From: Candidatus Dormiibacterota bacterium
GTDB lineage: Bacteria > Chloroflexota > Dormibacteria > Aeolococcales > Bog-877
Length of the DNA stretch: 64,000 nucleotides
Assembly: GCA_049790415.1 (NCBI GenBank)
Contig: JBAQYY010000102.1
Span: forward strand, 1,069 to 65,068
Direction: 5' to 3'
Shown here: positions 635 to 63,242 of the stretch, in pieces
How positions within the stretch are numbered: the first letter of the stretch is position 1
Layout: every line of letters begins with the position of its first letter
Position numbers and translations under genes: made by a program
The notes under the pieces: generated by a model
The model's input: the letters and a program-made list of their open reading frames with translations, nothing else
Database searches by the model: none
What the model was told of the DNA's origin: nothing

Positions 635-901
635 ATGCTTCAGGGTGAAGCCAAAGCTGCGGTGATCGAAGGTCACCGCCAACACGAGGGTGATACCGGC
701 TCGCCCGAGGTCCAAATCGCCATCTTTAGCGAGCGGATCCGCGAGCTCACCGAGCATCTCAAGGTGCACCCCAAAGACCATCACACCCGGCGCGGTCTGC
801 TCAAGTTGGTGGGCAAGCGTCGGCGTTTGCTGGATTACCTGATGCGGGTGGACATCGCCCGCTACCGGGCGCTGATCGCCCAGTTGGGGCTGCGCCACTG
901 A
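635..901 (+). CDS. rpsO: 30S ribosomal protein S15
   Basis: [69 protein letters not shown] is a canonical S15 sequence. AAGGAG lies upstream of the ATG at 635. The track ORF starts earlier at 533, but the N-extension is non-homologous. Confidence 0.9.
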
Positions 902-914
902 CACTGACCGATTT

Positions 915-951
915 CCGGCTTACTCGTTTGCAACCGAGAGCCGGTTACTTT
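915..951 (+). terminator. Stem-loop CCGGCT-N17-AGCCGG followed by TTACTTTT, a candidate intrinsic terminator/attenuator between rpsO and pnp
   Basis: Inverted repeat 915-920/938-943 with a T-rich tract directly after. The position, just after the rpsO stop and in the pnp leader, mirrors the E. coli rpsO-pnp arrangement. Confidence 0.4.
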
Positions 952-1136
952 TACGACCGCGAGCTCTCCCGAGCGGAGTTGCGGCAGACTTCACCGGAGC
1001 GGCAAGCGCGCGGTTGGAGACTGGCGATCGGAGCCGAACGAAGGTTCAGCTCTCATCCCCTTTCCCTAACCGCGACAGCCCTTTCCCCGGAGCAGCCTAC
1101 CTCTCTCTGCAGGCCGGAGCCGCGGGGAGGATCTCT

Positions 1137-3942: not shown

Positions 3943-3955
3943 CCAGACTTCGGAA

Positions 3956-5623
3956 TTGGCTGCTGCCGACTTCCTGGCCCAGCCGGCGCCGGGGATCCTG
4001 CGTTTCATCCCGCTGGGTGGGGTGGGGGAGATCGGCAAGAACCTGGCGCTGCTCGAGGTGGGCCCCGATGTCGTCGTCATCGATGCCGGCTTGGCCTTTC
4101 CGGAGGAGGAGACCCCCGGGGTGGACGTGGTGCTGCCGGACATCTCCTTTCTGCGTACCCGGCGGGATCGACTCCGGGCGGTTCTGCTCACCCACGGCCA
4201 CGAGGACCACATCGGGGCGCTCCCCTTCTATCTGAAGGAGCTCGGGGTGCCTGTCTACGGCACTCGAATGACCATCGGCCTGCTGCGCAACAAACTCGAG
4301 CGTCGGGGCTTCGCCGGCCACGCCACGCTGGCCGAGACTGAGCTGGGCCAGGCGTTCGCGGTGGGCCAACTCCAGGTGGAGCTCTTTCACATGACCCACA
4401 GTGTGCCCGGCAGCTGCGGTCTCGCCATTCATACTCCGGCCGGCCTGGTGGTGCACACCGGGGACTTCAAGCTCGACCAGTCCCCAGTCGGCGGGGTGGT
4501 TCCCGATCTGGGCCGGCTGGCTCACCTGGGCGGGGAGGGGGTGCGTCTCCTACTAAGCGACAGTACCAACGCAACCGTGGCCGGACTGACCCCCTCGGAG
4601 CTGACCGTGCGACCCGCTCTGAAGGAAGCCCTGGAGGATGCGCCCGGGCGGGTGTTGATGGTGACCTTCGCCAGCAATCTAGCGCGCATGCGGCAGACCC
4701 TGGAGCTGGCCGAGCAGGCCGGCCGGCGCTGCTGTCTGGTCGGGCGGCGCATGCTCCGCAACACCGATACCGCGCGCCAGCTGGGCTACCTCAACATCCC
4801 TCCCGGTCTGCTGGCTGCTCCCCGGGAGCTGGCCAGCATCCCCCCCCGGGAGCTCTGCCTCCTGGCGACCGGATCCCAGGGCGAACCACTGGCGGCGCTT
4901 AGTCGTATTGCCGCCGGCAGCCACCCCTTCATCCGCCTCCGGGACGACGACACCGTGGTCCTGGCCGCCAACCCCATCCCAGGTAACGAGGCCACCGTCG
5001 GGCGCATCGTCAACCAACTCGTCGAGCGCGGTGTGCGCGTTCTCGCTGGCAGTGCCTCTGGCGTTCATGCCAGTGGACATGCGGCCCAGGAGGAGCTGCG
5101 CTTTCTCCTGGAGGTGGTTAGGCCGCATTACTTCATCCCGGTCCACGGCGAGCCCCGTCACCTGGCTGCCCACGCCCAACTGGCCAGTCAGGTGGGGCTG
5201 GCTGCGGGCGCAGTCTCGATCCTGGAGAACGGCGATGTGGCGGAGATCTCAGCGAGTGAGATGCAGGTCCGGGGTAGCGTCAGTGTTGGCTCCATTCCCA
5301 TCGATGCCGAAGGTAAAGGGCTTGCTGCCGGTGCCACCCCCAGTCTGACCCCGATTCCGGTTGTGGTCGTCTCGGTGACCATGAACCGAACCCTGAGCAA
5401 GCTCCTGGCCGGTCCAGAGACCGTCCTGGTGGGAGATGCGGAGCAAGCGGAGCGCCGCCTTATCGACGGCGGCCGCGAGCAGGTTCGCCATGCCCTCCGC
5501 GGGCGGAGGGCCTTCCGCGACCCCGGGGCCGTGCGCCGGGCGGTAGGAGCGGCGATGGAGGATCACCTGGCGGCCAGCGGCCCCTGGCGCCCCCGGGTGG
5601 TGGCCGTCGTCAGCCTCGTCTAG
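3956..5623 (+). CDS. rnj: Ribonuclease J (metallo-beta-lactamase / beta-CASP RNase)
   Basis: LRFIPLGGVGEIGKNLALLEVGPDVVVIDAGLAFP...LTHGHEDHIGALPFYL (HxHxDH motif), ~555 aa. TTG at 3956 is the first in-frame start after the UDG stop. The track ORF begins at 3686 inside the UDG gene. Confidence 0.85.
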   Translation: MAAADFLAQPAPGILRFIPLGGVGEIGKNLALLEVGPDVVVIDAGLAFPEEETPGVDVVLPDISFLRTRRDRLRAVLLTHGHEDHIGALPFYLKELGVPVYGTRMTIGLLRNKLERRGFAGHATLAETELGQAFAVGQLQVELFHMTHSVPGSCGLAIHTPAGLVVHTGDFKLDQSPVGGVVPDLGRLAHLGGEGVRLLLSDSTNATVAGLTPSELTVRPALKEALEDAPGRVLMVTFASNLARMRQTLELAEQAGRRCCLVGRRMLRNTDTARQLGYLNIPPGLLAAPRELASIPPRELCLLATGSQGEPLAALSRIAAGSHPFIRLRDDDTVVLAANPIPGNEATVGRIVNQLVERGVRVLAGSASGVHASGHAAQEELRFLLEVVRPHYFIPVHGEPRHLAAHAQLASQVGLAAGAVSILENGDVAEISASEMQVRGSVSVGSIPIDAEGKGLAAGATPSLTPIPVVVVSVTMNRTLSKLLAGPETVLVGDAEQAERRLIDGGREQVRHALRGRRAFRDPGAVRRAVGAAMEDHLAASGPWRPRVVAVVSLV

Positions 5624-5626
5624 TCG

Positions 5627-6850
5627 GTGGGCCGAACTCTTCGCTGGGTGGCACTCGGGGTGGCGGTCTTGGTCATCCTGGGAGCGGGGGCGGCCGCCGG
5701 AGCCCAACTGAAGCGCCCGGTTCCACGACCAACTCTCCATCGTGAAATCGCCAGCTCCCTGCGCGTTCCTGGAAGCGCACCCGCCTTGCCGCTGCCGGCA
5801 ACAGGACAAGCCGCCCTCTACCTGCCCGGCTTCGGCTGGCTGGGGTCGTCTTCCGCCGAGACGGCCGTGCCCATCGCCAGCGTCACCAAAATCGTCACTG
5901 CTCTGGTCGTTCTCAGGGCGCATCCCCTGAGCTCGGGATCAGTGGGGCCAGCGGTGACCGTCGCCCCCAGCGACGTCGCCCTCTACCAAAGCGAGATTGC
6001 CCAGGGCGACTCGGTGGTGGCAGTGCAAGCGGGGGAGAGTCTCACCGAGCTGCAGCTCCTGGAGGGTTTGCTGCTGCCTTCCGGGGACAACCTGGCAGTA
6101 CTGCTGGCCGACTGGGTGGCGGGATCAGAGCCGGCCTTCGTGGCGCGGATGAACCAGCTGGTATCCACGCTCCACCTGAGGGACACCCATTTCACCGACA
6201 GCAGTGGCTTGGACCCCGCCAGCGTGAGCTCGGCTCGCGACCTGGTGACCCTGGCTGTCCTGGCCATGAAGAATCCAGTCTTTGCCTCGGTGGTGGCCAT
6301 GCCTGAAGTCACCCTGCCGGTAGCCGGAACGCTCCACAACTACAACCCGATCTTGGGCCAGGCCGGCGTGGTCGGAATCAAGACGGGGTGGACGGCGGCA
6401 GCGCTCGGATGTCTGGTCTTCGCCGCCAACACGGAGGTGGCGGGCCGACCAGTCCAACTCATCGGAGCCGTGCTCGGTCAGCCAGGCGGTCCGGAGTCGG
6501 GCCTCGTCGCGGCTGCCCGGGTAGCGTCGGCGCTGCTTTCGGCGGGGGAGTCCGGGCTGCGCCTGGTTCGCCTGCCCACCCCGGGCACACTGGTTGCCCG
6601 GCTGACGGCGCCCTGGTCGAAGAGCATTGCCGTCCGCGCCGGCGCTACCCTCTCGCTGGTCGCCCAGGCGGGAGCTGGTCTGGCTTGGTCCATCCGCTCT
6701 GAGATCCCGCGCCTACCCCTGCGGCGACGCTCGGAGGTGGGCTATTTGACGTTGACCACGCCGGTCGGGATCTGGCGCCGAGTGCCGCTGCTGGCGGCGC
6801 GCGGATTGACGGGCCCGAGCTTGTGGTGGCGCCTGACCCGCCACCCGTAG
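5627..6850 (+). CDS. D-alanyl-D-alanine carboxypeptidase (peptidase S11, PBP5/6-like)
   Basis: N-terminal signal/TM, then SVTK (SxxK), SGDN (SxN) and KTGWT (KTG), the active-site triad motifs of low-MW PBPs. GTG start 4 nt after the rnj stop. Confidence 0.75.
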   Translation: MGRTLRWVALGVAVLVILGAGAAAGAQLKRPVPRPTLHREIASSLRVPGSAPALPLPATGQAALYLPGFGWLGSSSAETAVPIASVTKIVTALVVLRAHPLSSGSVGPAVTVAPSDVALYQSEIAQGDSVVAVQAGESLTELQLLEGLLLPSGDNLAVLLADWVAGSEPAFVARMNQLVSTLHLRDTHFTDSSGLDPASVSSARDLVTLAVLAMKNPVFASVVAMPEVTLPVAGTLHNYNPILGQAGVVGIKTGWTAAALGCLVFAANTEVAGRPVQLIGAVLGQPGGPESGLVAAARVASALLSAGESGLRLVRLPTPGTLVARLTAPWSKSIAVRAGATLSLVAQAGAGLAWSIRSEIPRLPLRRRSEVGYLTLTTPVGIWRRVPLLAARGLTGPSLWWRLTRHP

Positions 6851-6947
6851 GGCGAGCAGATGTGCGGTCTCGCTGCTAGACTTCGGCCAGCGGGTGGCAA
6901 TACCGCTTCAGACCCATCCAATCCCACCCATGTCAACGCCCTCATAG

Positions 6948-9263
6948 ATGGCGAAAACGAAGCGGCGCCGGGCGCCGAGTCCGCGGGCGGCCAGCCCTCG
7001 ACGTAGACCGTCGACCGCGCGAGGGCGGCGCCCCACGAGTCCTGCCCTGCGTCTCAAGTCGACCCAGCGGCGCGAGCTGGCCGGGGTCAGCGCCATCGCC
7101 TTGGGCTTGATCTGGATGATCCTCCTCGCCTTCCCCCAGGCCAAGATCGCATTCGACTTCGGTCGGGCGATCTCGGATGCGGTGGGGATCGGGGGCTGGA
7201 TCATCGGAGTCGGCCTGCTTGCCGGTGGGGTTGGCATGCTGGCCTCAAGAACCTCAGAGAGAAGCGGTGGCCAGGTGTTGCTGGCGCTGGTGGTGTCGGC
7301 CGTTTCCGCCATTGCCATGGCGGCTACCGTTCAGCACGGGAGTGGAGGAGCGCTCGGCGCGGCGATTGGACCGCGGTTGGCGGATCTGGTGGGGGCTCCG
7401 CCGACCCTGGTGGCACTGGCCGCGCTGGCATTGGCGGGGTTGATCGTAGGCTTGGAGATCTACCCTTCGCGACTCTCGGTGCGCGCCTTCGGCCAGCTGG
7501 GTGATGCCGCTTCTCGTGCCTTTGCCTCCGACGGGGCAACTTCGGTTCGCGGTCGACTGGCGGCAACGCCCGCCAGCGGAAACGGACACGGACCTCTGGG
7601 CGGGCAGCTGCCCCAAATCGCCGAGAGCGACGATCCTGGGCCGGGCCCGGATGAAGTTGCTCCGGAGGCGTTCCAGCGGATCTTCGAGGGCCTGGAAGAT
7701 CTGGAGCCAGACCAGATCGCCGTCGAGGCGGCGGCTGAGGCCGTTGAGGTGGGAGGGAGTCCAGTCGCTCCAGCCGTGCGGACGTCCGCTCCCCAGCCCA
7801 CCGACGAACTCGACGACGAGCCCGAGCCCATCTGGATCCTTCCCAGCGTCGAGTTGCTCGATTCCGCCAGTGGCAAGCGGGAGCGGCTCCGGGACGAAAT
7901 CCGGAGCCGAATTCGCACCATCGAGTCCACCCTGGCCAACTTCGGGGTGCAGTGCAAGGTGATGGGTGTCAACGCTGGGCCGACGGTGACCCAGTACGAG
8001 CTCCAGCCGGCCCCCGGCGTGGCGGTTCGCAAGGTCCTCGCCTACCAGCCTGACCTCTCGATGGCCCTGGCGGCGCCGATCCGGATCCAGGCTCCCATCC
8101 CCGGTAAATCGGCCATCGGCATCGAGGTACCCAACAAGGCAGCTCAGCTGGTGACGCTCAAGGAGGTGGTTCAAGCCCCCACCTTTAATGGCGTCAAGAG
8201 CAAGCTGGCCGTAGCCTTGGGGGCGGACGTCAGCGGCCATCCCGTGCTGGGCGACCTGGCCGGGATGCCCCATCTCCTCATCGCCGGTACTACCGGGTCG
8301 GGCAAGAGCGTCTGCATCAATGCGGTACTGGCCGGGCTGCTCCTGCAGTCCACCCCCCGCGATCTGCGCCTGATCCTGGTCGATCCCAAGCGCGTCGAGC
8401 TGAGCAACTTCTCCGGACTTCCCCACCTCCTGGTCCCGGTGGTGGTCGACGCCGATCCGGCCGTGGCCGCGCTGCGCTGGGCGGTGATGGAGATGGAGCA
8501 GCGCTACAAGCTCTTCGCTGGTCACGGGGCCCGCAACATCACCAACTTCAACGACCGAGCTCCTCAGCTAGGGCTGCGTACCCTGCCCAAAATCGTGATC
8601 GTGATCGACGAGCTCGCCGATCTGATGATGGTGGCCGCCAACGAGATCGAGGACCTCATCTGTCGCATCGCCCAGCTGGCCCGGGCGGTGGGTATCCACC
8701 TGATCGTGGCCACGCAGCGGCCATCGGCCGACATCATCACCGGCCTGATCAAGGCCAACATCCCTTCGCGGATCGCCTTCGCGGTGAGCAGCGGCGTCGA
8801 CTCGCGGGTGATCCTCGATGAGATGGGCGCCGAGAAGCTCCTCGGGCGAGGGGACATGCTCTACTTACCCATCGACGCTGGCAAGGCGGTGCGCCTGCAG
8901 GGGGCTTACGTTTCCGACCGGGAGCTGGACCAGCTGATCGGCTGGTGGAAGGCGCAGGGCCGGCCTCACTATCAGGAGGAGATCCTCCAGGCAGCGGCTC
9001 TAGCACCCGCGCTGGGCGATCCGGTGCTCAAGCGCGATCCCCTCTTCGAGCGGGCCGGGCGGATCGTCATCGGGGAGCAGCGCGGTGCTGCCTCACTGCT
9101 GCAGCGCAAGCTCAACGTTGGGTATACCCGGGCGGCGCGGCTCATCGACCAGCTCTCCGACGCCCGGGTGGTGGGACCCTACGAAGGCAGCAAATCGCGC
9201 GAGGTGCTGATGAACCTGGCCGAGTTGGAGCAGATGCTCGACTCCAACGAGGATGGCGACTAG
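6948..9263 (+). CDS. ftsK: DNA translocase FtsK/SpoIIIE
   Basis: N-terminal membrane segments, a Pro/Ala-rich linker, then the motor domain: GTTGSGKSVCINAVLAGLLL (Walker A), ILVDPKRVEL, VIVIDELADLMM (Walker B), and a C-terminal gamma domain with LLQRKLNVGYTRAARLIDQL. Confidence 0.9.
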   Translation: MAKTKRRRAPSPRAASPRRRPSTARGRRPTSPALRLKSTQRRELAGVSAIALGLIWMILLAFPQAKIAFDFGRAISDAVGIGGWIIGVGLLAGGVGMLASRTSERSGGQVLLALVVSAVSAIAMAATVQHGSGGALGAAIGPRLADLVGAPPTLVALAALALAGLIVGLEIYPSRLSVRAFGQLGDAASRAFASDGATSVRGRLAATPASGNGHGPLGGQLPQIAESDDPGPGPDEVAPEAFQRIFEGLEDLEPDQIAVEAAAEAVEVGGSPVAPAVRTSAPQPTDELDDEPEPIWILPSVELLDSASGKRERLRDEIRSRIRTIESTLANFGVQCKVMGVNAGPTVTQYELQPAPGVAVRKVLAYQPDLSMALAAPIRIQAPIPGKSAIGIEVPNKAAQLVTLKEVVQAPTFNGVKSKLAVALGADVSGHPVLGDLAGMPHLLIAGTTGSGKSVCINAVLAGLLLQSTPRDLRLILVDPKRVELSNFSGLPHLLVPVVVDADPAVAALRWAVMEMEQRYKLFAGHGARNITNFNDRAPQLGLRTLPKIVIVIDELADLMMVAANEIEDLICRIAQLARAVGIHLIVATQRPSADIITGLIKANIPSRIAFAVSSGVDSRVILDEMGAEKLLGRGDMLYLPIDAGKAVRLQGAYVSDRELDQLIGWWKAQGRPHYQEEILQAAALAPALGDPVLKRDPLFERAGRIVIGEQRGAASLLQRKLNVGYTRAARLIDQLSDARVVGPYEGSKSREVLMNLAELEQMLDSNEDGD

Positions 9264-9279: not shown

Positions 9280-9774
9280 GTGGCCAGCAGCGAGCATTCC
9301 TTCGACGTGGTCTCCGACTTCGACCGCCAGGAATTGGTCAATGCGGTAGAGCAGGCCAAGCGGGAAATCGCCACCCGATACGACTTCAAAGACGTCACCG
9401 CGGAGCTCGATCTGCACGACAAGGAGATCGTCCTTCTGGCGGCCTCCGACGGCCGGGCCGACGCCATTCTGGACGTCCTCAAGGGCAAGCTGGTGCGCCG
9501 CCAGCTGTCGCTCAAGATCCTCGACCCGGGCAAGCCCGAACCGGCCGCCAAGGGCAACGTCCGCCAGGTGATTCAGCTGCGCAAGGGGATTGCCGAGGAG
9601 ACGGCCCGCGACCTGACCAAGCGGATCAAGGCCAACCACGGCAAAGTGCAAGTGCGGATCCAGGGGGACGAGCTGCGAGTCAGCAGCAAGGACAAGGACG
9701 CGCTGCAGGCGGTCATCAAGGAGCTCCGCGAGCTGGACCTGCCGGTGCCCCTGCAGTACACCAACTACCGATGA
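9280..9774 (+). CDS. yajQ: YajQ family (UPF0234) nucleotide-binding protein
   Basis: SFDVVSDFDRQELVNAVEQAKREIATRYDFKD...KANHGKVQVRIQGDELRVSSKDKDALQAVIKELRE matches the YajQ family closely. GTG start. The large overlapping ORF 9273..10376 is a different frame. Confidence 0.8.
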   Translation: MASSEHSFDVVSDFDRQELVNAVEQAKREIATRYDFKDVTAELDLHDKEIVLLAASDGRADAILDVLKGKLVRRQLSLKILDPGKPEPAAKGNVRQVIQLRKGIAEETARDLTKRIKANHGKVQVRIQGDELRVSSKDKDALQAVIKELRELDLPVPLQYTNYR

Positions 9775-10376
9775 CCACCAGGGGGACCACCGCTCCCCCT
9801 AGGACGACCGGGGAGGCGGCTGCACCACTCGAGGTGAGCTGGCATGGAGCGGCCAACCTGATCACCCTAAGTCGGCTCGGCCTCATCCCGGTGATCCTCT
9901 TCTGCCTGGAGGCGGGCTTCCAAGGCAGCCACCAGCTGGCCGCCGGGCTCTTTGTCTTGGGGGCGGCCACCGACAGTCTGGACGGGATGGTTGCCCGACG
10001 CCGCCACCAGGTCAGCTCGTTGGGGATTTTTCTCGACCCACTGGCCGACAAGCTGCTGGTGATCGCGGCTCTCTTCCCCCTGGTCAGCGAGGGTGCTCTG
10101 CCTGCCTGGGCTGGATTCGTGATCGTGGCCCGCGAGGTGGCGGTAGTGATCCTGCGCGCCCGGGGCACGCGCTCGGGGATCTCGATCAGCGCCAACCGGG
10201 TGGCCAAGCTCAAGACGCTTAGTCAGGATGCCATGGTCGTCATCCTGATCCTCCAGCGCCCCTTCACCGAGTTGCGCGGAGCGTCCGGGTGGTTGGTTGC
10301 CCTGGCCCTCGTCTTCACCGTCTGGAGTGGGGGCGTCTACCTCTGGCGCTTCCGATCTCTGATCAGTTGGCGATGA
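9771..10376 (+). CDS. pgsA: CDP-diacylglycerol--glycerol-3-phosphate 3-phosphatidyltransferase (CDP-alcohol phosphatidyltransferase)
   Basis: ANLITLSRLGLIPVILF...GAATDSLDGMVARRRHQVSSLGIFLDPLADKLLV is the D-x2-DG-x2-AR..G-x3-D-x3-D motif. The ATG at 9771 overlaps the yajQ stop (ATGA). GTG 9831 is an alternative start. Only the last ~200 aa of the track ORF 9273..10376 are real. Confidence 0.8.
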   Translation: MTTRGTTAPPRTTGEAAAPLEVSWHGAANLITLSRLGLIPVILFCLEAGFQGSHQLAAGLFVLGAATDSLDGMVARRRHQVSSLGIFLDPLADKLLVIAALFPLVSEGALPAWAGFVIVAREVAVVILRARGTRSGISISANRVAKLKTLSQDAMVVILILQRPFTELRGASGWLVALALVFTVWSGGVYLWRFRSLISWR

Positions 10377-10876
10377 TCCCCTCCGAGCTGAGCGATCTCG
10401 CCCTCGCCTTTCCCCAGGCACGGCTGGTTGCGGAGCGCGCTGGTGGCTACCCAGCCCAGACGCTGGCCACCGCCGAGTCCTGCACCGGAGGATTGCTGGC
10501 CGCTGTCTTGACTGCGGTCCCGGGAAGTTCGCGCTCCTACCTGGGTGGGATAGTTGCCTACGCCAATGGTGTCAAAACGGAGGGGTTGGGGGTGGCTCCG
10601 TCCCTGATCCGCAGGCACGGGGCGGTGAGTCGAGAGGTGGTTGAGGCGATGGCTGAGGGAGTGCGGAATCGTTACCGAAGCACCTTTGGGCTGGCGACCA
10701 CGGGAGTTGCGGGACCGGGAGCTTCGGAGGGCAAGCCTGCCGGCCTGATCTACGTGGCAGTGGCTGGTCTGGGAGGCATCGAAGTGGTCCGGCTGGATCA
10801 AGATCGAGGTCGGCACGAGAATCGAGTTGGGGCAGTCCTGGCCGCCCTCGACCTGCTTCTGGTGTCGCTGGAATGA
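10373..10876 (+). CDS. cinA: CinA C-terminal domain protein (PncC-like nicotinamide-nucleotide amidohydrolase), no N-terminal MocF domain
   Basis: LATAESCTGGLLAAVLTAVPGSSRSYLGGIVAYANGVKTEGLGV...LATTGVAGPGA is the CinA C-terminal family. ATG 10373 overlaps the pgsA stop (ATGA). Lies immediately upstream of recA, as in many Gram-positives. Confidence 0.8.
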   Translation: MIPSELSDLALAFPQARLVAERAGGYPAQTLATAESCTGGLLAAVLTAVPGSSRSYLGGIVAYANGVKTEGLGVAPSLIRRHGAVSREVVEAMAEGVRNRYRSTFGLATTGVAGPGASEGKPAGLIYVAVAGLGGIEVVRLDQDRGRHENRVGAVLAALDLLLVSLE

Positions 10877-10935
10877 CTTGCTCCCAGCCCCTCCCAATGG
10901 ACTCGCAGGACCTACCACTGGGGGCCTGGACGCGG

Positions 10936-10957
10936 TACAATAGCGAACAGCTGTTCC
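10936..10957 (+). promoter_or_regulatory. recA promoter -10 (TACAAT 10936-10941) immediately followed by a LexA box CGAACAGCTGTTCC (10944-10957)
   Basis: GAAC-N4-GTTC palindrome (Cheo-box type) 76 nt upstream of the recA start, abutting a TACAAT hexamer. Confidence 0.6.
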
Positions 10958-11032
10958 CCACCATCAGCGAGCCGTCCAATCACTAGTCATCGTCCGCGGC
11001 CGGTCCGCACCGCCACACCGGAGGTCACCCAA

Positions 11033-12151
11033 TTGAGCGCTACACTCGAAGTCGCGGGACGCGTGAGCGGCCCGGCGAACCGCGATGCCAAGGAGTCTGC
11101 TCGGGTGGCCACTGAGAAGGACCGAGCCCTGGGAGCCGCTCTGACCCAGATCGAGCGGAGCTACGGCAAGGGCGCGATCATGCGCCTCGGCGACGGCACC
11201 GGTGCCAAGGGCATCGAGGTGATCTCGACGGGCGCGTTGACCCTCGACCTAGCTCTCGGGGTCGGGGGTATCCCGAGAGGTCGGATCGTGGAGATCTTCG
11301 GCCCTGAGTCATCGGGCAAGACCAGCCTCAGCCTCCACATCGTGGCGGAAGCGCAGAAAGCTGGTGGCGTGGCCGCCTTCATCGATGCCGAGCACGCACT
11401 CGATCCCGCCTATGCCGCCCGAATCGGGGTCAACATCGATGAACTTCTGATCTCCCAACCGGACACTGGTGAGCAGGCCCTGGAGATCGTTGAGGTGCTG
11501 GTTCGGAGCCAGGCGGTTGATGTGGTGGTGATCGACTCGGTAGCGGCACTGGTTCCCAAGGCCGAGATCGACGGTGAGATGGGCGACACCCATGTCGGCC
11601 TCCAGGCCCGCCTCATGTCCCAGGCCATGCGCAAGCTGACCGCGGCCATCAGTCGCTCCAACTGCGTGGTGATTTTCATCAATCAGCTCCGGGAGAAGGT
11701 TGGGGTCATGTTCGGCAATCCCGAGGTCACGAGCGGGGGTCGGGCCCTGAAGTTCTACGCCTCAGTGCGGCTGGACATTCGCAAGATCGACTCCCTGAAG
11801 CAAGGTCTTGACGTGATCGGCGGCCGAGTCAGGGTCCGGGTGGTCAAGAACAAGGTCGCCGCACCCTTCCGGTCGGCAGAACTTGATCTCCTCTACAACG
11901 AGGGCATCTCCTACGAGGGAAGCGTTCTCGACGGAGCCATCGAGGCCGGGATAATCGAGAAGAGCGGTGCCTGGTTCAGCTACGGCGAGATGCGCCTGGG
12001 TCAGGGTCGAGATAACGTCCGCGATCTCCTCCGAGGCAATGCCGAGTTGACCCAGGAAATCGCCGACAAGGTCCGCCAGGCGGTGATCGGAGAGCCGGTA
12101 CCGGCTGCTGCCGACGAGGTGGAGGTCGAGCCCGCTACCGCGGCCGGCTAA
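11033..12151 (+). CDS. recA: Recombinase RecA
   Basis: [24 protein letters not shown]...[17 protein letters not shown] (Walker A)...[22 protein letters not shown]...[37 protein letters not shown] start at 11033 after a GGAGG. GTG 11063 is an alternative. Confidence 0.95.
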
Positions 12152-54341: not shown

Positions 54342-55322
54342 GTGGGAAGGCGACCCTTGGATAAGGGTAGCGTGGATTTGGACGCGGCCAGCCAACTGAC
54401 CCCGGAGGTTGCTTGGGAGGCGCTCACAGCGGATCGCGAAGGCACTGATCCGCGAGCCCTCGAGAGCCTGCGCCCCTGGCTGGTAGCCCGGGCGCTCCGC
54501 CTGGTCAACGACCGCCAGCTGGCTGCCCTGGTCGCGCAGCAGGTGCTGGTCGATCTGACCGCCAGGTCAGGGCAGGCGATCCGCTCCTCCGAAGAGCTCG
54601 AGCAGTGGCTCACCGTTCGGGTGGCCCAGACGGTGGCTCTCTTCACCGGCAGCATGGCGGTCGGGGCGGGGACTACCCCTCCCGTCTCCTCCAGCATCCC
54701 CTCGGCGCTTGCGCTGGGAGGCGGCTGGCGATTGGCCGCCTGGACGCGGCGCTTGCTTCCCCGGCGGAGGATCCGCTTGCCCGTCCCCGTTGCCACCTCC
54801 TTGGCGGCGGGCCTGGCAATTCTGCTTGTTGGGTCGGCGCTAGCGACGGGCTATGCCCTCGGCTCGCACCCCCGCAGCGGTGGCCCAGGAACGCCGAACA
54901 GCCAATCCGGCGGCAGTGTCCCCGTGGTGATTCCACCGGGAACCCAGCTCGCCGTTCCTCCCCCCACTCCCCCGACGTCCCCGGCACCCCTAGCCACGTC
55001 CATTACCACCTTGCTGGCGTCTCCCCCTGGGCCGTCTGTTCCGATCACCACAGTTGGGAACTCGGTACCCCCACCACCGCCGGTCCCCGTCCCACCCGGG
55101 CCGGTGCCCCGACCGCCCTGCCCGCAGCCGACCAACCCCACCACCGCGGGATGGGGGTCACTAGGCTGGAGTGGTGGAAATTCGCAGGGCCACACAGGAG
55201 TACCTGACCTACCTAGCAGTGGACCGGGCCCGCAGTGGTCAAACGATCCGGGCCTACCAAATCGACCTGAACCAGGCGGTCCAGTTCTGGGCGGCTCTCA
55301 AGGACCCTGCGGACGACACTAG
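54342..55322 (+). CDS. Hypothetical single-pass membrane protein with an extremely Pro/Ser/Gly-rich C-terminal region (anti-sigma-like?)
   Basis: A ~150-aa soluble N-terminus, a TM helix (ATSLAAGLAILLVGSALA), then PPTPPTSPAP / PPPPPVPVPPGPVPRPP low-complexity sequence. The last 150 nt overlap the xerC-like gene in another frame, so the true 3' end is uncertain. Confidence 0.35.
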   Translation: MGRRPLDKGSVDLDAASQLTPEVAWEALTADREGTDPRALESLRPWLVARALRLVNDRQLAALVAQQVLVDLTARSGQAIRSSEELEQWLTVRVAQTVALFTGSMAVGAGTTPPVSSSIPSALALGGGWRLAAWTRRLLPRRRIRLPVPVATSLAAGLAILLVGSALATGYALGSHPRSGGPGTPNSQSGGSVPVVIPPGTQLAVPPPTPPTSPAPLATSITTLLASPPGPSVPITTVGNSVPPPPPVPVPPGPVPRPPCPQPTNPTTAGWGSLGWSGGNSQGHTGVPDLPSSGPGPQWSNDPGLPNRPEPGGPVLGGSQGPCGRH

Positions 55323-56115
55323 CCAGTTAAGCCGCGACATGGTCCGCGCCTATCAGCGCCACCTCGGCCAAGTCGGCCTGGCACTGAGTTCTCGGGCCCG
55401 TCGCCTGCAAGCGCTGCGGGGGTTCTTGCGCTACGCGCTGCGCGAGAGTTGGATCGGAGAAGACCTGGCGGCCCATATCGACATACCGCGCATCTCGGCG
55501 CCCCTACCCAAACCCCTCAGCACCACCGAGGCTCGCCTGGTCCTTAACTACGACCACGGCAGCGAGGAAGCGGGACTCCGTGATGCCGCCCTCATTCACT
55601 TTCTGATGAGTACCGGCTGCCGTATCTCGGAGGCGCTCTCGGTCAAGCGCACCCAGATCAACGCCGAGGGGCGGCTGGTGGTGCGGGGCAAGGGTTCGAA
55701 GGAGCGGATGGTCCATCTCACCCCGCAAGCGACTCAGGCCGTGCGGGCTTACCTGGATGCCCGACATGACCGCGAGTCGGCTCTATTCCTCAACTACGAC
55801 CGCTCGTCGGTAGCCCGGGGCAAGCGCGAGTTGACTAGTGCGGGAGCCCGTCACATCGTGCGGCGGGTGCGCCTCGCGACCGGGGTGGAAGGCCTCAAAT
55901 CTCCCCATGTTTTACGGCATACAACCGCGACTGAGCTGCTGACCATCACCGGCAACGTCCGCCTCGTCCAGGAAGTGCTTGGCCACGCCAACCTCAACAC
56001 CATGCAGGGCTACACCAAGGTGGTCGACTCGGCTCGAGTGGCCGCCTACGCGGAGCTGGCCGATCGCCTCGAGCAGCCGCGCAAGCTCAGGGAGAAGGAG
56101 TCGCCGCCGGGGTGA
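55171..56115 (+). CDS. Tyrosine recombinase XerC/XerD family
   Basis: N-terminal core-binding domain (EYLTYLAVDRARSGQTIRAYQIDL), then the catalytic R...K...HxxR...Y set: GCRISEAL, RGKGSKERMVHL, LRHTTATELL, HANLNTMQGYTKV. Confidence 0.8.
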   Translation: MVEIRRATQEYLTYLAVDRARSGQTIRAYQIDLNQAVQFWAALKDPADDTSQLSRDMVRAYQRHLGQVGLALSSRARRLQALRGFLRYALRESWIGEDLAAHIDIPRISAPLPKPLSTTEARLVLNYDHGSEEAGLRDAALIHFLMSTGCRISEALSVKRTQINAEGRLVVRGKGSKERMVHLTPQATQAVRAYLDARHDRESALFLNYDRSSVARGKRELTSAGARHIVRRVRLATGVEGLKSPHVLRHTTATELLTITGNVRLVQEVLGHANLNTMQGYTKVVDSARVAAYAELADRLEQPRKLREKESPPG

Positions 56116-57947: not shown

Positions 57948-58024
57948 CGGGGAGTAGCGCAGGTGGTTAGCGCACCAGTCTGGGGGACTGGGGGTCGCAG
58001 GTTCGAGTCCTGTCTCCCCGACCA
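57948..58024 (+). tRNA. tRNA-Pro (anticodon GGG at 57982-57984), CCA encoded
   Basis: Hand-folded: acceptor CGGGGAG/CTCCCCG (perfect), D arm GCGC-AGGTGGTTA-GCGC, anticodon stem CCAGT/ACTGG with loop CTGGGGG, variable GGGTC, T arm GCAGG-TTCGAGT-CCTGT, discriminator A, CCA. Confidence 0.9.
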
Positions 58025-58539
58025 CCGATTTGAGCTCAGCATCACGTCGGCAAGGTCTCGGATGAGCGCTAGCGAGGCGACGCTGACGGCGTAGGCGAGG
58101 GGCAGCGTGCATGTTCATGGCGATCGCTGCGGTGGCCAGCGACGCCAATTGGCAGCGGCGATCTCTCCGACGCCAACGTCAAGCCGATCAGCGTTGAGGA
58201 CTTCTAGGAGACGGAGAGGACCATGACGCTCAAGGAGCTCTCCATATGAGGCCTGGGTTCAACCGAGTGCTGAGCCACGAGTCTCCGCTGTCTCAGTCGC
58301 TACAGTTGGAAGGAAATCTCGCATCAATTGCCTCGAAACGCCGGAAACGCGCTGGGACGGTTCGTGTCCGCGATGGCGTTCGACCGGTCAAACTTGGATC
58401 GCTCGGCCGACGGCTTCATTGGTATCTTTGACTACGAGGAGCTCCACCTGTACCTGAGCAGCCGCGGTATCAAGTCGAGTTGGCCCGTGTCGGTCGGCAT
58501 CGCGTATCGCGTGAGTCTCGGCTCTGCCGGAGGGTCGTT

Positions 58540-59370
58540 GTGATCGACCGGCCAGCCGCGCTTGCGGCTCTGCCGGAGAGTTACGGTCCGCTCTTCGATC
58601 GTGCGGCGGCTGTGTTCGAGGCGGACGAGCGAGTCCGGGCGATGTGGCTGCACGGCGCGCTGGCACGCGGCCAGGCGGATGCGGCTTCCGATATGGACAT
58701 CTTGATCGCGATTTCGGACGACACCTTCGAGGGTTTCGCCGCCTCGTGGCGAGACTGGCTAGCCGCGATCACGCCAACCCTCACCGCCCGCCCTCTCTCG
58801 CCGGGCAGTTTTTACGCGCTGACCCAGTCCTGCGAGCGATTCGATGTCGTCGCTGAGGCGGTCGGCAAGCTACCTGCCACGTCGCACAGGAGGCGGCTTG
58901 TCGTCTTCGATCGCGACGGATTGAATGACGTGATCCCGCCGCCGGCCGATCCACCGCCGGACCCCGCAGTCATCACATACCTGATCGAGGAGGCGCTACG
59001 GCAGGCGGCGAACTTCCCCACCGTCCTCGTCCGCGACGACTGGCTGATGGGCGTCGTCGCGGTCCAGCAGGTCCAGATGTTCCTATATCAACTGTTCGCG
59101 GAGTCGAACAAACCTGCGCCCGCGACCGGCCCAAAGCAGTGGAGCTTCAAGCTGACTCCTGCCCAGCGCCAGGTTCTCTCGGACTTGCCAACGGCCGCGC
59201 CGTCTCCGGACTCGGTCCTGGCGGCACGCGAAGCTACCTTCACCGTGTTCTTTCGCGAGGCCCCGCCGATCGCCCTCCGCAACGGAGTGCCCTGGCCCTC
59301 CGCCTTGGAGCAAGCCGTCCGCGACTACCTGCGTGAGCAGGGAGCCCCGCTCCCGGACCGAGCGGACTAA
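58540..59370 (+). CDS. Nucleotidyltransferase-domain protein resembling aminoglycoside nucleotidyltransferases ANT(3'')/ANT(9) (AadA-like) with a DUF4111-like C-terminal domain
   Basis: ERVRAMWLHGALARGQADAASDMDILIAI fits the hG[GS]...DhD polymerase-beta-type NTase motif at the AadA-like position, at ~276 aa. GTG 58540 is preferred over the track start 58480. No antibiotic function can be asserted from sequence alone. Confidence 0.55.
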   Translation: MIDRPAALAALPESYGPLFDRAAAVFEADERVRAMWLHGALARGQADAASDMDILIAISDDTFEGFAASWRDWLAAITPTLTARPLSPGSFYALTQSCERFDVVAEAVGKLPATSHRRRLVVFDRDGLNDVIPPPADPPPDPAVITYLIEEALRQAANFPTVLVRDDWLMGVVAVQQVQMFLYQLFAESNKPAPATGPKQWSFKLTPAQRQVLSDLPTAAPSPDSVLAAREATFTVFFREAPPIALRNGVPWPSALEQAVRDYLREQGAPLPDRAD

Positions 59371-59567
59371 GGAACCACCCCCAGCCGCTGCCCGCAGCGG
59401 CTGAGAAGAGTGTCTGTGGCTCCTTCCGGCGTGAGGGGAGCTGACAGCACAACTGAGGGCAATCCCGCGGGACGGGCGCGCTTGGTTGCGGACTTCGGCG
59501 GACGTAGTCGCCAGGCCACTGAACGCACGTAGCAACGAACAGGTCTCGCCGGACGATTCGTACGGAT

Positions 59568-59612
59568 CTGGGGACCTGGGTGTCGCAGGTTCGAGTCCTG
59601 TCTCCCCAACCA
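59568..59612 (+). repeat. Direct repeat of the 3' end of tRNA-Pro (25/25 identical core TCGCAGGTTCGAGTCCTGTCTCCCC plus similar flanks), a candidate att-type duplication bounding a ~1.6 kb islet
   Basis: Compare 57996-58024 with 59583-59612. The downstream 15 nt are also similar (CGATTTGAGCTCAG vs TGATTGAGATCAG). At only ~45 nt it is too short to be a tRNA. Confidence 0.6.
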
Positions 59613-59685
59613 CTGATTGAGATCAGAACCAGGTGGCGCGGCGACGAGCCGATCGTGGCGGCTGCGACGCCGCCCGTGCCCGGGC

Positions 59686-60199
59686 TCAAAGGAGCGATGC
59701 CAGGTAGTCCTCGAGCTTATCGAAGCTCGCCTGCTGACCATCAATGGCGACCGCCGGATCATCGCGGTGCCCTGGGGCGTGCTGGAACATTGAGTCGAGA
59801 CTCGCCTGGTCCCTGAAGGCAAGCACGGTCGTCATCGTCGTGACGCCATCCAGCTCTTGCAGCGTCACCGTCTCCACGGCCTCGGCTTCCGGCCTCCCGT
59901 CGAACACCCAGGTGTTGACCAACCTAGTCGGTCGCTCGATCTGGAGGAACGTGCCGTGAAAGGAGCACTTGGCGCCACCAGCGATCACACCCACGTAGCG
60001 GTAGTCCCCACCGACCCGCAGGTCGATCTCGCAGACCTCGAGACCCTCGTCTCCGCCGGTGAACCAGACGGTCACGTGCTCGGGCTTCGTCAATACGTCG
60101 AAGAGCAGCTCGGCGGACGCGTCGAACTTCCGGGTGGTCAGCATCTCGCGGTCGCTCGGGAACTCGAGCGTGGCCGAGCCATGTCGATTGATCGTCACT
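59686..60199 (-). CDS. SRPBCC superfamily protein, AHSA1 (activator of Hsp90 ATPase homolog 1-like) domain
   Basis: VTINRHGSATLEFPSDREMLTTRKFDASAELLFDVLTKPEHVTVWF...RLVNTWVFDG is an AHSA1 (PF08327)-like pattern. GTG 60199 with a GGAGAGGA RBS. Its start overlaps the arsR stop (GTGA). Confidence 0.65.
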
Positions 60200-60524
60200 T
60201 CTCTTCCTCTCCTTGTTGTAGCTCGCCGAGATAGTCGTCCAAACGGTCCAGGTGCTCCTGGTACTTCGCCAGCCACCCGTAGAGCGGCTGGAGGCGGTCA
60301 CGATCCAGTCGGTAGTAGCGACGCCGCCCCTCCGCGCGGCATTGCACCAGGCCCACCTCGCTGAGCACGCGCAGGTGCTTGGAGACCTGCGGCTGGGAGA
60401 TCGACAGCCCGTCAACGATCGCCCCGACCGGCTTCTCGCCCGCCAGCAACGCGTCGAGGATGTCGCGGCGGTTCGCTTCGGCGATCGCGTTGAATACGTC
60501 GGACGTGGTGGCGGCTCGTGCCAT
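60195..60524 (-). CDS. ArsR/SmtB-family transcriptional regulator
   Basis: FNAIAEANRRDILDALLAGEKPVGAIVDGLSISQPQVSKHLRVLSEVGLVQCRAEGRRRYYRL is a winged HTH of the ArsR family. ATG 60524 is preferred over the track start 60551. Confidence 0.75.
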   Translation of the reverse strand: MARAATTSDVFNAIAEANRRDILDALLAGEKPVGAIVDGLSISQPQVSKHLRVLSEVGLVQCRAEGRRRYYRLDRDRLQPLYGWLAKYQEHLDRLDDYLGELQQGEEEK

Positions 60525-60533
60525 GCCGCAATT

Positions 60534-60553
60534 ATATGCCGCTCTCGGCATAT
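60534..60553. promoter_or_regulatory. Perfect inverted repeat ATATGCCG-CTCT-CGGCATAT 10 nt upstream of the arsR ATG, a candidate ArsR operator
   Basis: 8-4-8 palindrome read directly from the sequence. ArsR/SmtB regulators typically autoregulate via an inverted repeat overlapping their own promoter. A TATAAT-like hexamer (TATAAT read on the minus strand at 60531-60536) overlaps it. Confidence 0.5.
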
Positions 60554-60731
60554 GTCAGTTGTGCGAGGCACGCCCCTGCCGGGCGGCCTACCAGGAGACC
60601 CCGGGACACTCATACGGGTCGACCTGATCGAAGACGTTGGCAAACACGGACCGCCGGCCTACCCACCCGGCGGGTGCCTGGCATTGCCCGAGATTGTGTG
60701 ACCACTTCTGGAGCAGCATGATCTCCTGACC

Positions 60732-62204
60732 GTGGATCATCGGGACGTGAGAGCGAAGCTATGGAAGCGACGTGCCAGCCTACTGGCCGGGCTGTGCGCG
60801 CTCCTCGCGGCCACCGCACTCCTTCCGGGGCTCCACGCCGTAGGTACCACCGCGAGGGCAGCTGCCCGGCCGACGGCCCTCTCCAAACTCCTACTGTCGG
60901 CCCCTGATCTTCCCCAGGGCTGGCGGACGATCACGAACTCGAGCAGTAAGTTCACCACGAACCTCGGCTGCGGAGCCAGCTTGGCAGGGCTTGGGAAGGG
61001 CTGGCACCAAGTGGACGGCGTCTTCGTAAACGGGAAGGGTTTCCCCTTTGTCTCCGAGGCGCTCGCCACCGGGCCGGAGGTCGCTTCGACCTGGACTCGC
61101 CTGCAGGACGCGCTCGCGGCCTGCCGCTCGACCACTGTCACCGTCAACGGCGAGCGGCACCGTGCGAGGATCAGCCAGCTACCCTTCGCCGCCACGGCGA
61201 CAGACATGACGGCGCTGTGGCAGCTCACGGGCCCAGGCATCCCGCTGGGTATCGACGTCTTCGTGTTCCGTGGCAACCAGGTACTCGGGACGGTGTCGTA
61301 CACCGATGTCGGGACTCCCGACCTAGGCAACGGTGCAGCCTTTGCCGCGGCCGCCATCGCCAAGGCGGGAGGCTCTGCGGGCGCGGTCACTGGCACGGTT
61401 TCGATCGCGACCGCACCGGTGCGCGTCGCGCGGACCAGGAAAGGCACGGTCGCCTACCGGATTGCCGGGAGCGGTCCGCCGCTTGTCCTGGTGATGGGCT
61501 ACGCGGGGACCATGGACACGTGGGACCCTCAGTTCGTCGACGCGCTCGCGCACCAGTTCACGGTCGTGGTGTTCGATAACGCCGGCATCGGGAGGACCTC
61601 GCCCTTGCCCTCCCCACTCACGATCGACGCCATGGCGCAGCAGACGAGCGCGTTGATCGCGGCGCTCCATCTGGGCGCCCCCGATGTTCTGGGGTGGTCG
61701 ATGGGGGGCATGATCGCGGAGGCGCTGGCGATCCTACACCCGACGCAGGTGCACCGGCTCGTTCTTTGTGCCACGTTTCCCGGAACCGGAGCGCAGCGCC
61801 CAGCCCAATCCGTGGTTGACGCGCTGAATGCGGGGGGTGCCAAGGCGTCGTCGGTGTTGTTCCCCCCAGGCCATAAGGCGGCGGCGACCCTGTTCGCGGC
61901 ATCGCTCTCCGAATACCCTGCGTCGGCCAACGCACCGGGAAGGGTGGTGACTGCGCAGGCGACGGCCGTCCTCCAAGCCTGGGAGGGCAAGGACCGCTCC
62001 CTGCGGCACTTCCGTCAGATCGTCGCTCCGACCCTCGTCGCTGACGGCACTCTGGACCGAGTCGTCCCAGCGGCGAACCCTCGAGCGCTCGCGGCTGGGA
62101 TCGCTGGAGCCAGGCTCCTTCTGTACAAGGGAGCGGGGCACGCATTCTTGTTCCAGAGTCTTTCCGCCTTCGTGCCCGCCGTCGAAGCGTTTCTCACGGC
62201 CTGA
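60732..62204 (+). CDS. Secreted alpha/beta-hydrolase fold protein with a ~220-aa N-terminal extracytoplasmic domain
   Basis: Signal peptide (LLAGLCALLAATALLPGLHAVGTTARA). The C-terminal half has the nucleophile elbow GWSMGG and an alpha/beta-hydrolase-like His near the end (GAGHAFLF). Confidence 0.7.
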   Translation: MDHRDVRAKLWKRRASLLAGLCALLAATALLPGLHAVGTTARAAARPTALSKLLLSAPDLPQGWRTITNSSSKFTTNLGCGASLAGLGKGWHQVDGVFVNGKGFPFVSEALATGPEVASTWTRLQDALAACRSTTVTVNGERHRARISQLPFAATATDMTALWQLTGPGIPLGIDVFVFRGNQVLGTVSYTDVGTPDLGNGAAFAAAAIAKAGGSAGAVTGTVSIATAPVRVARTRKGTVAYRIAGSGPPLVLVMGYAGTMDTWDPQFVDALAHQFTVVVFDNAGIGRTSPLPSPLTIDAMAQQTSALIAALHLGAPDVLGWSMGGMIAEALAILHPTQVHRLVLCATFPGTGAQRPAQSVVDALNAGGAKASSVLFPPGHKAAATLFAASLSEYPASANAPGRVVTAQATAVLQAWEGKDRSLRHFRQIVAPTLVADGTLDRVVPAANPRALAAGIAGARLLLYKGAGHAFLFQSLSAFVPAVEAFLTA

Positions 62205-62352
62205 GCCCCCGAGAGACAATGCACGCTCGCGACACGCAAAGCGGCCGAACTCAGCGTTCTCTTCCAACTGCACCGCAAGCCGTCGGCGACCAGCTGCACC
62301 GCCTTGCTAGTGCTGATGGCCACAGGGTGTGCGGTATTGAACTGGACCCAGC

Positions 62353-62983
62353 ATGAATTCCTACCACCCCAGAGCACTAGGCGGGACAACTGACGAAGGG
62401 GTCGACATGCTCGAGGCGCGCCGCCCCGGCTTGCCTCGTATGTTGGTGCTGACGACCGGCCCCCCAGGCGCGGGCAAGACAACGCTAGCCCGCCAGGTGG
62501 CTGGTGGCCTCGGGGCTCCCGCTGCTCTCCAAGGACATGGTCAAAGAGCAACTCTTCGACACTCTCGGGGTCCACGACCGCGCTTGGTCGATGAAGCTGG
62601 GAGCCGCCGCTAACGAGATTCTCTGGGCCATAGCTCGCGAGTGCGTCGGCGGCGCGGTGGTCGACACTTGGCTGGACCCTACCCGGGATGACGCGGACCG
62701 AGCCAGGGCGGCGGTGCGGACAACCGGTATCTCCCTGACTTGGGAGCTGATGTGCGACTGCCTGGCCGAAGTCGCAGTTGCTCGCTATGCGGCCCGAGTC
62801 CGTCATCCCGGTCATCTGCCCCCCGACGAAGAGACCCTGGATCGGATCCGGCGGGCCGTCCCACTCTTGGTTCCCCTGGGCCTCGGTCCGGTGATCCAGG
62901 TCAACACCACCCATCCCGTAGATCTGGGGCCCATCCTGGCCCGGCTCAGGGCAGACGGCGAAGCGGGGGACGCCGCTCCCTAA
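62353..62983 (+). pseudogene. P-loop NTPase/kinase (AAA_33-like) gene interrupted by a +1 frameshift near 62515-62530
   Basis: Frame A gives MLVLTTGPPGAGKTTLARQVAGGLG (Walker A) and then nonsense. Frame B continues LPLLSKDMVKEQLFDTLG...DTWLDPTRDDADRA... This is consistent with a single extra base in the GGGGCTCCC run, either a sequencing error or a genuine pseudogene. Confidence 0.45.
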
Positions 62984-63242
62984 ACAAGCTCGTGTGGACG
63001 TCCAGCCCACGAACCGCGAGCTCACTCGCCCAGACCTGAATAACCTAGGAGTGGCGCACTTTAGCCCGCAAACGAAGGGAGATCACGCGATGAGCATTGC
63101 CGAGCATGTGAACCTGCGTCCCCTCACCGAGGCGGACGTAGACGTGCTAGATCGGATGGAGAATGACCCGTCGGCGGTGGAAACCAAAAGCGACAGGCTC
63201 GAACTCGATTGACAGCCGCCCACCTCCGCGAGGAGCAATGAA

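Follow-up and report, generated by a model that had tools for sequence, protein, structure and literature searches.

A single-gene islet between tRNA-Pro(GGG) and a partial copy of it in a hypervariable Dormibacterota locus

We analysed a 64,000-nucleotide (nt) stretch of DNA from a Candidatus Dormiibacterota bacterium (assembly GCA_049790415.1, contig JBAQYY010000102.1, positions 1,069 to 65,068), referred to below as the window, and in it a segment of about 1.6 kb that directly follows a proline tRNA gene, tRNA-Pro(GGG). This segment, the islet, lies between the tRNA gene and a partial second copy of it, and carries a nucleotidyltransferase (NTase) gene. An earlier reading of the sequence, which we call the original prediction, had taken the arrangement as a trace of site-specific integration. 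The features of the locus are as follows, attL and attR being left and right attachment sites, aa amino acids, ORF open reading frame and GC the guanine-plus-cytosine fraction.

57948-58024, plus strand: intact tRNA-Pro(GGG) (ARAGORN; Rfam tRNA, 62 bits), the proposed integration target, attL side
57979-58050, plus strand: repeat copy 1, tRNA positions 32-77 and about 25 nt of 3' flank (repeat search; extended alignment)
58025-58100, plus strand: left arm of the islet, "type A" flank (BLAST and multiple alignments with relatives)
58101-58539, no strand: spacer, GC 0.61, with small unsupported ORFs only (no credible Pfam and no PHROG or PADLOC match)
58540-59370, plus strand: cargo NTase, 276 aa, Pol-beta superfamily with a helical C-domain (predicted LinB/ANT(6)-like fold)
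59382-59403, plus strand: perfect 9-bp GC hairpin (strand folding; no T-run)
59439-59566, plus strand: right arm of the islet, "X-left", including TGACAGCACAACTGAGGGCAATCCCGC at 59442-59468 (BLAST, alignment, motif search)
59567-59637, plus strand: repeat copy 2, attR-like, comprising a tRNA fragment that spans anticodon loop to CCA (59567-59612) and about 22 nt of type A-like flank (no ARAGORN or Rfam tRNA call)
59686-60524, minus strand: AHSA1/SRPBCC gene, 170 aa (59686-60198), and ArsR gene, 109 aa (60195-60524), identified by Pfam, the next module of the array

One direct repeat stands out in the region, matching at 47 of 52 nt (90%) between 57979-58030 and 59567-59618 by repeat search and alignment, with an exact core of 26 nt (57994-58019 and 59582-59607). 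If one 1-nt indel is allowed the likeness extends to about 58050 and 59637 (60 of 72 columns), and a 23-mer taken from the core is found at two places, and no more, in the 64 kb, where shuffled sequence gives 0.01. The second copy takes in the 46 nt from tRNA position 32, where the anticodon loop has its 5' edge, to the CCA end, followed by about 20 nt of 3' flank; the 25-nt repeat of the tRNA 3' end that had been placed at 59583-59612 is therefore a genuine direct repeat, but about twice as long as supposed. A span that begins at the anticodon loop and reaches the CCA end is a recognised class of bacterial attachment site (attB) of tyrosine integrases (bioRxiv 10.1101/2020.11.02.365908), and a boundary drawn sharply at the anticodon loop is the kind of trace left by a site-specific crossover. 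The repeat, which runs from that boundary through the 3' end, is built like an att duplication, in agreement with its having been read as an integration signature.

The sole supported gene between the repeat copies is that of the NTase. Both spacers (58025-58539 and 59371-59566) were screened for integrase remnants and gave no credible Pfam match (one, at E 0.012, was at chance level and below the cutoff) and no PHROG match, while spacer ORFs had no match in PADLOC and the stretch 58101-58539 showed homology to none of the fetched loci. Moreover, a tblastn search of the region with the integrase of a relative matched only a Xer-family recombinase gene at 55171-56115. As no integrase match falls between the repeat copies, the islet is one without a recombinase, and the description of a single 276-aa NTase unaccompanied by an integrase stands. 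One of the unsupported spacer ORFs (58328-58543) has a stop codon that overlaps the NTase start. GC content gave no island signal: at 0.669 for the NTase gene and 0.657 for the modules downstream it is like that of the window (0.656), and the 515-nt left spacer alone is lower (0.61). The hairpin at 59382-59403 (CAGCCGCTG CCCG CAGCGGCTG), 12 nt past the NTase stop codon, may be a terminator in this high-GC organism; its folding was not significant against shuffled sequences (z = -0.74), and scans for promoters and consensus terminators found none.

We compared the locus with about 45 syntenic loci from other Dormibacterota assemblies (given L numbers here), collected via a conserved 64-aa gene beside the tRNA. 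All that extend far enough share the upstream order serC-Xer-SH3-pyrF-64aa-tRNA-Pro, and the 77-nt tRNA-Pro is 100% identical in L002, L094, L166-L175 and L186-L193. The DNA that follows tRNA-Pro is variable, and the core resumes at DEAD helicase, gpsA, der, iPGM, TIM and PGK (L002, L174, L176, L186). The following states were found after the tRNA.

L170: AHSA1-ArsR directly, with 86% nucleotide identity to window 59707-60585, the empty-site configuration for the window islet
L094, L166, L168: a 315-aa tyrosine integrase about 150 nt past the identical tRNA, then helix-turn-helix, primase-type, RusA and terminase genes
L167, L169, L171: an integrase-less islet of 3.7 kb (LysE, EamA, glyoxalase-family) that opens with 87 nt of prophage-type flank and closes with a 62-nt partial tRNA (positions 16-77); dienelactone hydrolase (DLH) and AHSA1-ArsR follow
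L172, L174, L175: an islet of 1.07 kb with a single DLH gene, ending in a 39-43-nt partial tRNA from position 35 that is 100% identical; patatin and AHSA1-ArsR follow
L177: a 338-aa integrase and an FtsX-domain gene
L194: as L177, minus a 1.8 kb integrase segment
L180: neither integrase nor FtsX-domain gene
L002, L003, L186-188: NTase adjoining the tRNA, then isochorismatase, with no second repeat within 11 kb
L189, L190: a different segment of 1.3 kb in the NTase slot, with flanks 86-88% identical to those of the L002 group and L186-188, which have the NTase
L160, L176: other genes

When relatives are compared at this locus, as the original prediction had proposed, the islet is thus found to be present in some and absent from others and not fixed, L170 being empty and L189 and L190 being without the NTase. 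tRNA-Pro(GGG) is a live integration site, with integrase genes beside it in L094/L166/L168 and in L177, and islets that have no integrase and lie between the tRNA and a partial copy of it recur (L167/169/171 and L172/174/175). Searching IMG/VR with the 26-nt core returned eight phage tRNA arrays, which are irrelevant tRNA-Pro(UGG) genes, and the provirus L094.

The Xer-family gene, of XerC/XerD type (218 and 203 bits), keeps its position in all syntenic relatives long enough to include it, regardless of the DNA after the tRNA. Consequently, it is a core gene and not the integrase of the islet: a XerC/D-family recombinase does lie 1.8 kb from the tRNA, as had been reported, but it is part of the conserved core and not an island gene.

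Two side observations concern the integrase-bearing loci. The elements of L094 (IMG/VR 3300037242_000186) and of L166 and L168 (locus coordinates 1-7716) are prophage-like, with an AAA_25/primase-type protein, RusA and a large terminase, and apparently represent undescribed Dormibacterota proviruses. The 1.8 kb segment of L177 (reverse complement, 9343-11142) holds little beyond the 338-aa integrase, its presence or absence is independent of the FtsX-domain gene (compared with L194 and L180), and no repeat was detected flanking it.

The ends of the window islet recur elsewhere around a different cargo gene. By BLAST, window 57979-58088 matches the second copy of L172/174/175 at 81% over 110 nt (the tRNA-proximal alignment of the type A flank reaches 58093), and window 59439-59634 matches the left flank and second copy of the same loci at 71-72% over 203 nt, X-left including a 27-nt block (59442-59468) that is nearly identical between them. 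The second-copy junction in these three loci reads X-left, core, type A, and these two arms enclose the NTase in the window, pointing inward. Between the arms everything differs, with 1345 nt and a plus-strand NTase in the window and 866 nt and a minus-strand DLH in L172/174/175. The same arms around different cargo indicate that the arms belong to the frame of the element and not to the cargo gene, and shared inward arms would be the outcome expected from tandem integration of related elements with one attP, the attachment site of the element.

The type A flank is found after tRNA-Pro in L170, L172-175, L173 and L189, and also after the second copy in L172/174/175. It comprises about 110-150 nt of noncoding sequence directly 3' of tRNA-Pro, 76-85% conserved across lineages whose core synonymous sites are saturated (window 58025-58100; L170rc 8319-8440; L172rc 7928-8077 and 9037-9148; L189rc 2821-2971), and is duplicated along with the tRNA half in L172/174/175. 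Type A contains no ORF and has no Rfam match; a structured RNA was considered and rejected, the consensus fold being weak with an unfavourable covariation term and Rfam finding the tRNA only. In L172/174/175 every module boundary behind the tRNA carries, on one strand, a 20-nt motif, TGACGsCwTAACTGAsGGCA, which the window has once (59442-59461); we guess that it could be an arm-type binding site of a recombinase. Its positions in L172rc are 7987, 8866, 9096 and 10226, with the same in L174 and L175, and one occurrence falls at the patatin/AHSA1 boundary, which is without a tRNA-like core. IMG/VR was scanned with the X-left block and with core plus type A, and gave no matches.

Divergence differs on the two sides of the tRNA. 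Nei-Gojobori estimates between the window and L002, L170, L172, L167 and L160 give synonymous divergence (dS) of 1.2-2.1 for Xer, SH3 and pyrF upstream of the tRNA and 0.8-1.5 for the 64-aa gene, at or near saturation, whereas dS is 0.68 for the NTase (against L002) and 0.30-0.43 for AHSA1 and ArsR (against L170, L172 and L167). Non-synonymous divergence (dN) is alike in the upstream core genes and the downstream genes. Lower dS at like dN implies that the DNA past the tRNA, including the modules past copy 2, is of more recent ancestry than the host chromosomes, and to judge from these divergences this DNA has moved between lineages. The modules DLH, patatin and AHSA1-ArsR recur in differing orders at 81-86% identity. 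The low dS of AHSA1/ArsR relative to the core genes (0.8-2.1) bears out the suggestion that island cargo lies beyond the repeat.

Our preferred explanation, to which we assign a probability of roughly 0.6, is that the segment ~58025-59612 is a remnant or minimal version of a site-specific integrative element in tRNA-Pro(GGG), flanked by att sites and resembling a cis-mobilizable element (CIME). The element would have entered the tRNA gene by recombination of the tyrosine-integrase type, the region of crossover reaching from the anticodon loop to a point shortly beyond the 3' end; integration would thereby have restored an intact tRNA on the left (attL), and the tRNA 3' half that it displaced would have ended up on the right (attR, 59567-59612). 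It would now be without a recombinase of its own, its end sequences (58025-~58100 and 59439-59566) enclosing one cargo gene, and would be the unit nearest the tRNA in a mosaic array whose modules (NTase, AHSA1-ArsR, hydrolase and others) are exchanged horizontally; the array fills a hotspot, hypervariable in Dormibacterota, that extends from tRNA-Pro to the der/glycolysis core genes. We infer that an integrase made the duplication seen in the window, that its gene was lost from the islet rather than never present there, and that the islet would still be mobile given an integrase in trans. A "decayed integrative element or minimal cargo islet" had been proposed; the att-flanked, integrase-less islet is retained here, and its decay from an autonomous element is conjectural, no parent with these arms and an integrase having been found.

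Several observations weigh against this explanation. Neither the fetched loci nor IMG/VR yielded an element in which the arms of the window accompany an integrase. Where the NTase adjoins the tRNA in L002 and L186-188 no second repeat accompanies it, and a module boundary in L177/L180 is likewise without a repeat; modules of the hotspot are therefore exchangeable without att duplications. Furthermore, the left arm could be native, given that type A follows a genuine tRNA even in the "empty" L170, and of type A no more than about 22 nt are left in copy 2, such that a simple product of attB x attP needs an extra deletion. Finally, neither junction of the islet, to the pyrF side or to AHSA1, is confirmed by an independent assembly.

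CIMEs are defined as elements that retain attL and attR and from which the integration and transfer genes are gone (PMC5704250), and the window islet is alike in having attL and attR derived from the 3' end of a target gene, in having no integration or transfer genes, and in lying in tandem with other modules (PMC5704250). It differs in that known CIMEs have been traced to related integrative and conjugative or integrative and mobilizable elements, whereas the search for the islet turned up no autonomous relative that shares its arms, in its very small size (1.6 kb, one gene), and in its host, an uncultured Dormibacterota with no conjugation genes in sight. Analogous decay at the same tRNA is seen in other elements (the L167-type islet, and L194 compared with L177). 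The prophage in L094/L166/L168 shares target tRNA, side and orientation with the window islet, yet its flank is of another type (type B), and it is a complete phage-like element with integrase and terminase; the L167 islet, which is prophage-derived, has a longer repeat than the window (62 nt, from the D-loop). Elements of the pSAM2 type in tRNA-Pro of actinomycetes are an example of an attB that extends from the anticodon loop to CCA. The window repeat covers this same span in tRNA-Pro, a class of sublocation described in bioRxiv 10.1101/2020.11.02.365908, although the islet, unlike such tyrosine-integrase elements, has no integrase, excisionase, or replication or transfer gene. The islet is an ordinary example of a type of mobile island that is well known, here in a phylum that has been little studied, and neither the hotspot nor the NTase family overturns current understanding. 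Its interest lies in a hotspot that can be compared across genomes, with intact prophages, integrase-only and integrase-less units and shared modules, in Dormibacterota, abundant uncultured soil bacteria whose mobile DNA is almost unknown.

A serious rival, though on balance a doubtful one, is that a cassette was swapped by homologous recombination. Under this hypothesis an older duplicated frame (tRNA and type A at one end, X-left and partial tRNA at the other) was already in place, the NTase replaced an earlier cargo such as DLH after DNA uptake, and no integrase event took place in this lineage. Common arms with differing interiors in the window and L172/174/175 (1345 nt with NTase, 866 nt with DLH) fit such a swap, as do the varied orders of the DLH, patatin and AHSA1-ArsR modules at 81-86% identity and the L002 lineage, in which the NTase slot is taken by another gene between conserved flanks without any repeat. 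However, the sharp anticodon-loop boundary of the frame still needs a duplication of the att type, so that the integrase event is merely placed earlier, and arms that are 72-81% identical are a poor substrate for homologous recombination between these lineages.

A more speculative extension of the integrative hypothesis, which we consider improbable, is that X-left, core and type A together form an attP of about 300 nt belonging to tiny single-gene circular cassettes (NTase, DLH, possibly patatin), loaded serially behind tRNA-Pro by a recombinase acting in trans, which could be the integrase of a prophage targeting the same tRNA or the neighbouring Xer-family enzyme. The basis so far consists of two cargo types with common arms and one recurring motif; if true, the locus would be an integron-like array on a tRNA-derived site, moving genes between Dormibacterota lineages.

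The window is a contig of a metagenome-assembled genome, and we compared it with the independent Logan contigs L005, L164, L165 and L204. These stop inside or short of both repeat copies, L005 corresponding to 57996-59611, L164 ending at 57976 and L204 starting at 59876. A misjoin at the tRNA or at copy 2, such that the islet does not lie between pyrF-tRNA and AHSA1-ArsR in any one genome, might be suspected from the breakage of same-run contigs inside both copies, from the entry of L165 into a foreign T-arm, and from the 100% identity of the 77-nt tRNA across lineages. It is nevertheless quite unlikely: the exact repeat is only 26 nt, below read length and the usual assembly k-mers, L005 links copy-1-right, the NTase and copy-2-left in one contig, and the sequence tRNA, islet, partial copy, AHSA1-ArsR recurs independently in JGI and ENA assemblies (L167-L175).

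Two of these contigs merit further description. In L005 (Logan SRR28061248) the islet interior is contiguous with both repeat copies, and its last 10 nt, equivalent to window 59602-59611, end ...CTCCCCGACC where copy 2 of the window has ...CTCCCCAACC; the contig end joins copy-2-left to ...CCCCGACC, which is of copy-1 type, G being the copy-1 state. This end could be a strain variant or the attP-type junction of an excised or tandem islet, and as k-mer logic fits both we give it no weight. L165 (Logan SRR28003091) tracks the window through pyrF and the 5' part of the tRNA, while its last ~25 nt are a different T-arm (GTCCCGAGTTCAAATCTCGG...), and is an example of the tangling of assembly graphs at tRNA genes in these metagenomes.

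Very improbable in our view is a platform akin to an integron, on which the conserved Xer recombinase inserts and excises single-gene cassettes at the 3' half of tRNA-Pro. Xer is always beside the hotspot, there are single-gene modules with common ends, and the 20-nt motif is repeated at module boundaries. However, on the integron-integrase model Xer reaches 68 bits, the cutoff being 265, three unrelated genes separate it from the site, and dedicated integrases occupy the same site in relatives. Integrons are recognised by an IntI-type integrase beside attI and by co-oriented cassettes with attC hairpins, but here the modules lie on both strands, with no common orientation, and boundary sequences contain no conserved hairpin of the attC type.

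Least likely of all is that copy 2 is a second tRNA-Pro gene decayed after tandem duplication, the alternative that the original prediction had itself raised: the direct orientation and the likeness running into the 3' flank would suit it, but identity is 90% in the 3' part and, in the 45 nt upstream of it, likeness to the tRNA 5' half is no better than in shuffled or random genomic sequence (score 5 against 5.8 +/- 1.2, p = 0.90), neither ARAGORN nor Rfam calls a tRNA there, so that a decayed whole-tRNA duplicate is excluded on these grounds, and partial copies in relatives start sharply elsewhere, at positions 35 and 16.

The cargo NTase has weak sequence matches, confined to its N-terminus. 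Pfam Polbeta reaches 24 bits, below its cutoff, NCBIfam gives Lnu(F) 21.2 bits against a cutoff of 450 and Lnu(G) and Lnu(B) 20.3 and 17.7 bits against 525, and a sequence search of PDB returns LinB at E 0.028; a profile search likewise produced weak N-terminal matches only, and PADLOC weak generic matches to the N-terminus only. No Pfam or NCBIfam match was obtained for a DUF4111/AadA C-domain, nor any to Pfam Adenyl_transf (ANT(6)) at E <= 0.01. The NTase is outside every curated resistance family, failing all their cutoffs. Across 64 aligned homologs, G39, D51, D53 and D102 are invariant, and correspond to the G-x11-D-x-D signature of Pol-beta NTases and the third acidic residue. An AlphaFold2 model from this alignment (predicted local distance difference test, pLDDT, 95.5; predicted template modelling score, pTM, 0.83) was compared with PDB by Foldseek, and aligned over its full length (274-276 columns) with LinB (3jyy; E 5e-11, template modelling (TM) score 0.62-0.65), followed by ANT(6)-Ib (8vxb; TM 0.62) and, more weakly, by B. 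subtilis ANT(6) and by ANT(4'). AadA aligned at a TM score of about 0.30, and the "AadA-like" fold with "DUF4111-like C-domain" that had been proposed for this protein must be replaced by one nearer to LinB and ANT(6)-Ib (0.62-0.65).

The predicted NTase thus has in common with LinB/Lnu and ANT(6) a two-domain fold over its full length (TM 0.62-0.65, E to 5e-11) as well as the G-x11-D-x-D signature and third acidic residue, yet identity to them is about 15%, and it falls below the Lnu cutoffs and lacks a Pfam match to ANT(6) or AadA. On the strength of the model, it is most likely a putative small-molecule O-nucleotidylyltransferase of the antibiotic-modifying type.

NCBI annotates the window NTase as a protein of a Candidatus Dormiibacterota metagenome-assembled genome. 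The family is large, with 311 matches at E <= 0.001 among scored candidates, and includes Kribbella proteins 68-70% identical to the window NTase. Homologs at 82-88% identity occur in at least 5 unrelated contexts, among them a rhamnose/polysaccharide cluster (L006-9), L010, L001 and the JGI loci L100-L107, and homology in those contexts is limited to the coding sequence and about 12 nt upstream, a pattern suggesting that the NTase travels as a single gene. In a metagenome scan with the NTase, 0 of 60 loci had tRNA-Pro or a partial tRNA copy, and the gene is therefore not generally tied to this att site. The homolog in L001 (10001-11017; GCA_963787645.1, a contig of 1.3 Mb) is 82% identical to that of the window and lies near HicA-type and small unknown genes on a contig that also encodes a WhiB-family protein. 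Taken together with the Kribbella homologs, this WhiB-encoding contig suggests transfer of the NTase between Dormibacterota and Actinomycetota. A search of genome contigs with PyrF found relatives from other phyla only, at 40-51% identity. The family, predicted to have a LinB/ANT(6) fold, is well conserved and widely spread, taking in Dormibacterota and Kribbella, and has no member that has been characterised; it is a candidate for an enzyme that modifies drugs in the environment.

Downstream of copy 2, the annotated lengths of AHSA1 and ArsR are those of the sequences found in the collection. Further on, a P-loop kinase-like gene (AAA_33; window 62353-62983) is split by a frameshift into 62353-62613 and 62504-62983, which agrees with the frameshifted kinase described there previously, while the GNAT reported beside it was not recovered, Pfam not confirming the 72-aa ORF at 62994-63212 as a GNAT fragment. 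An alpha/beta hydrolase (60732-62204) and the broken kinase constitute an extra insertion (window 60600-63030) relative to L167, L172 and L174, and in these three loci the homolog of window 63030-63178 follows almost directly after ArsR.

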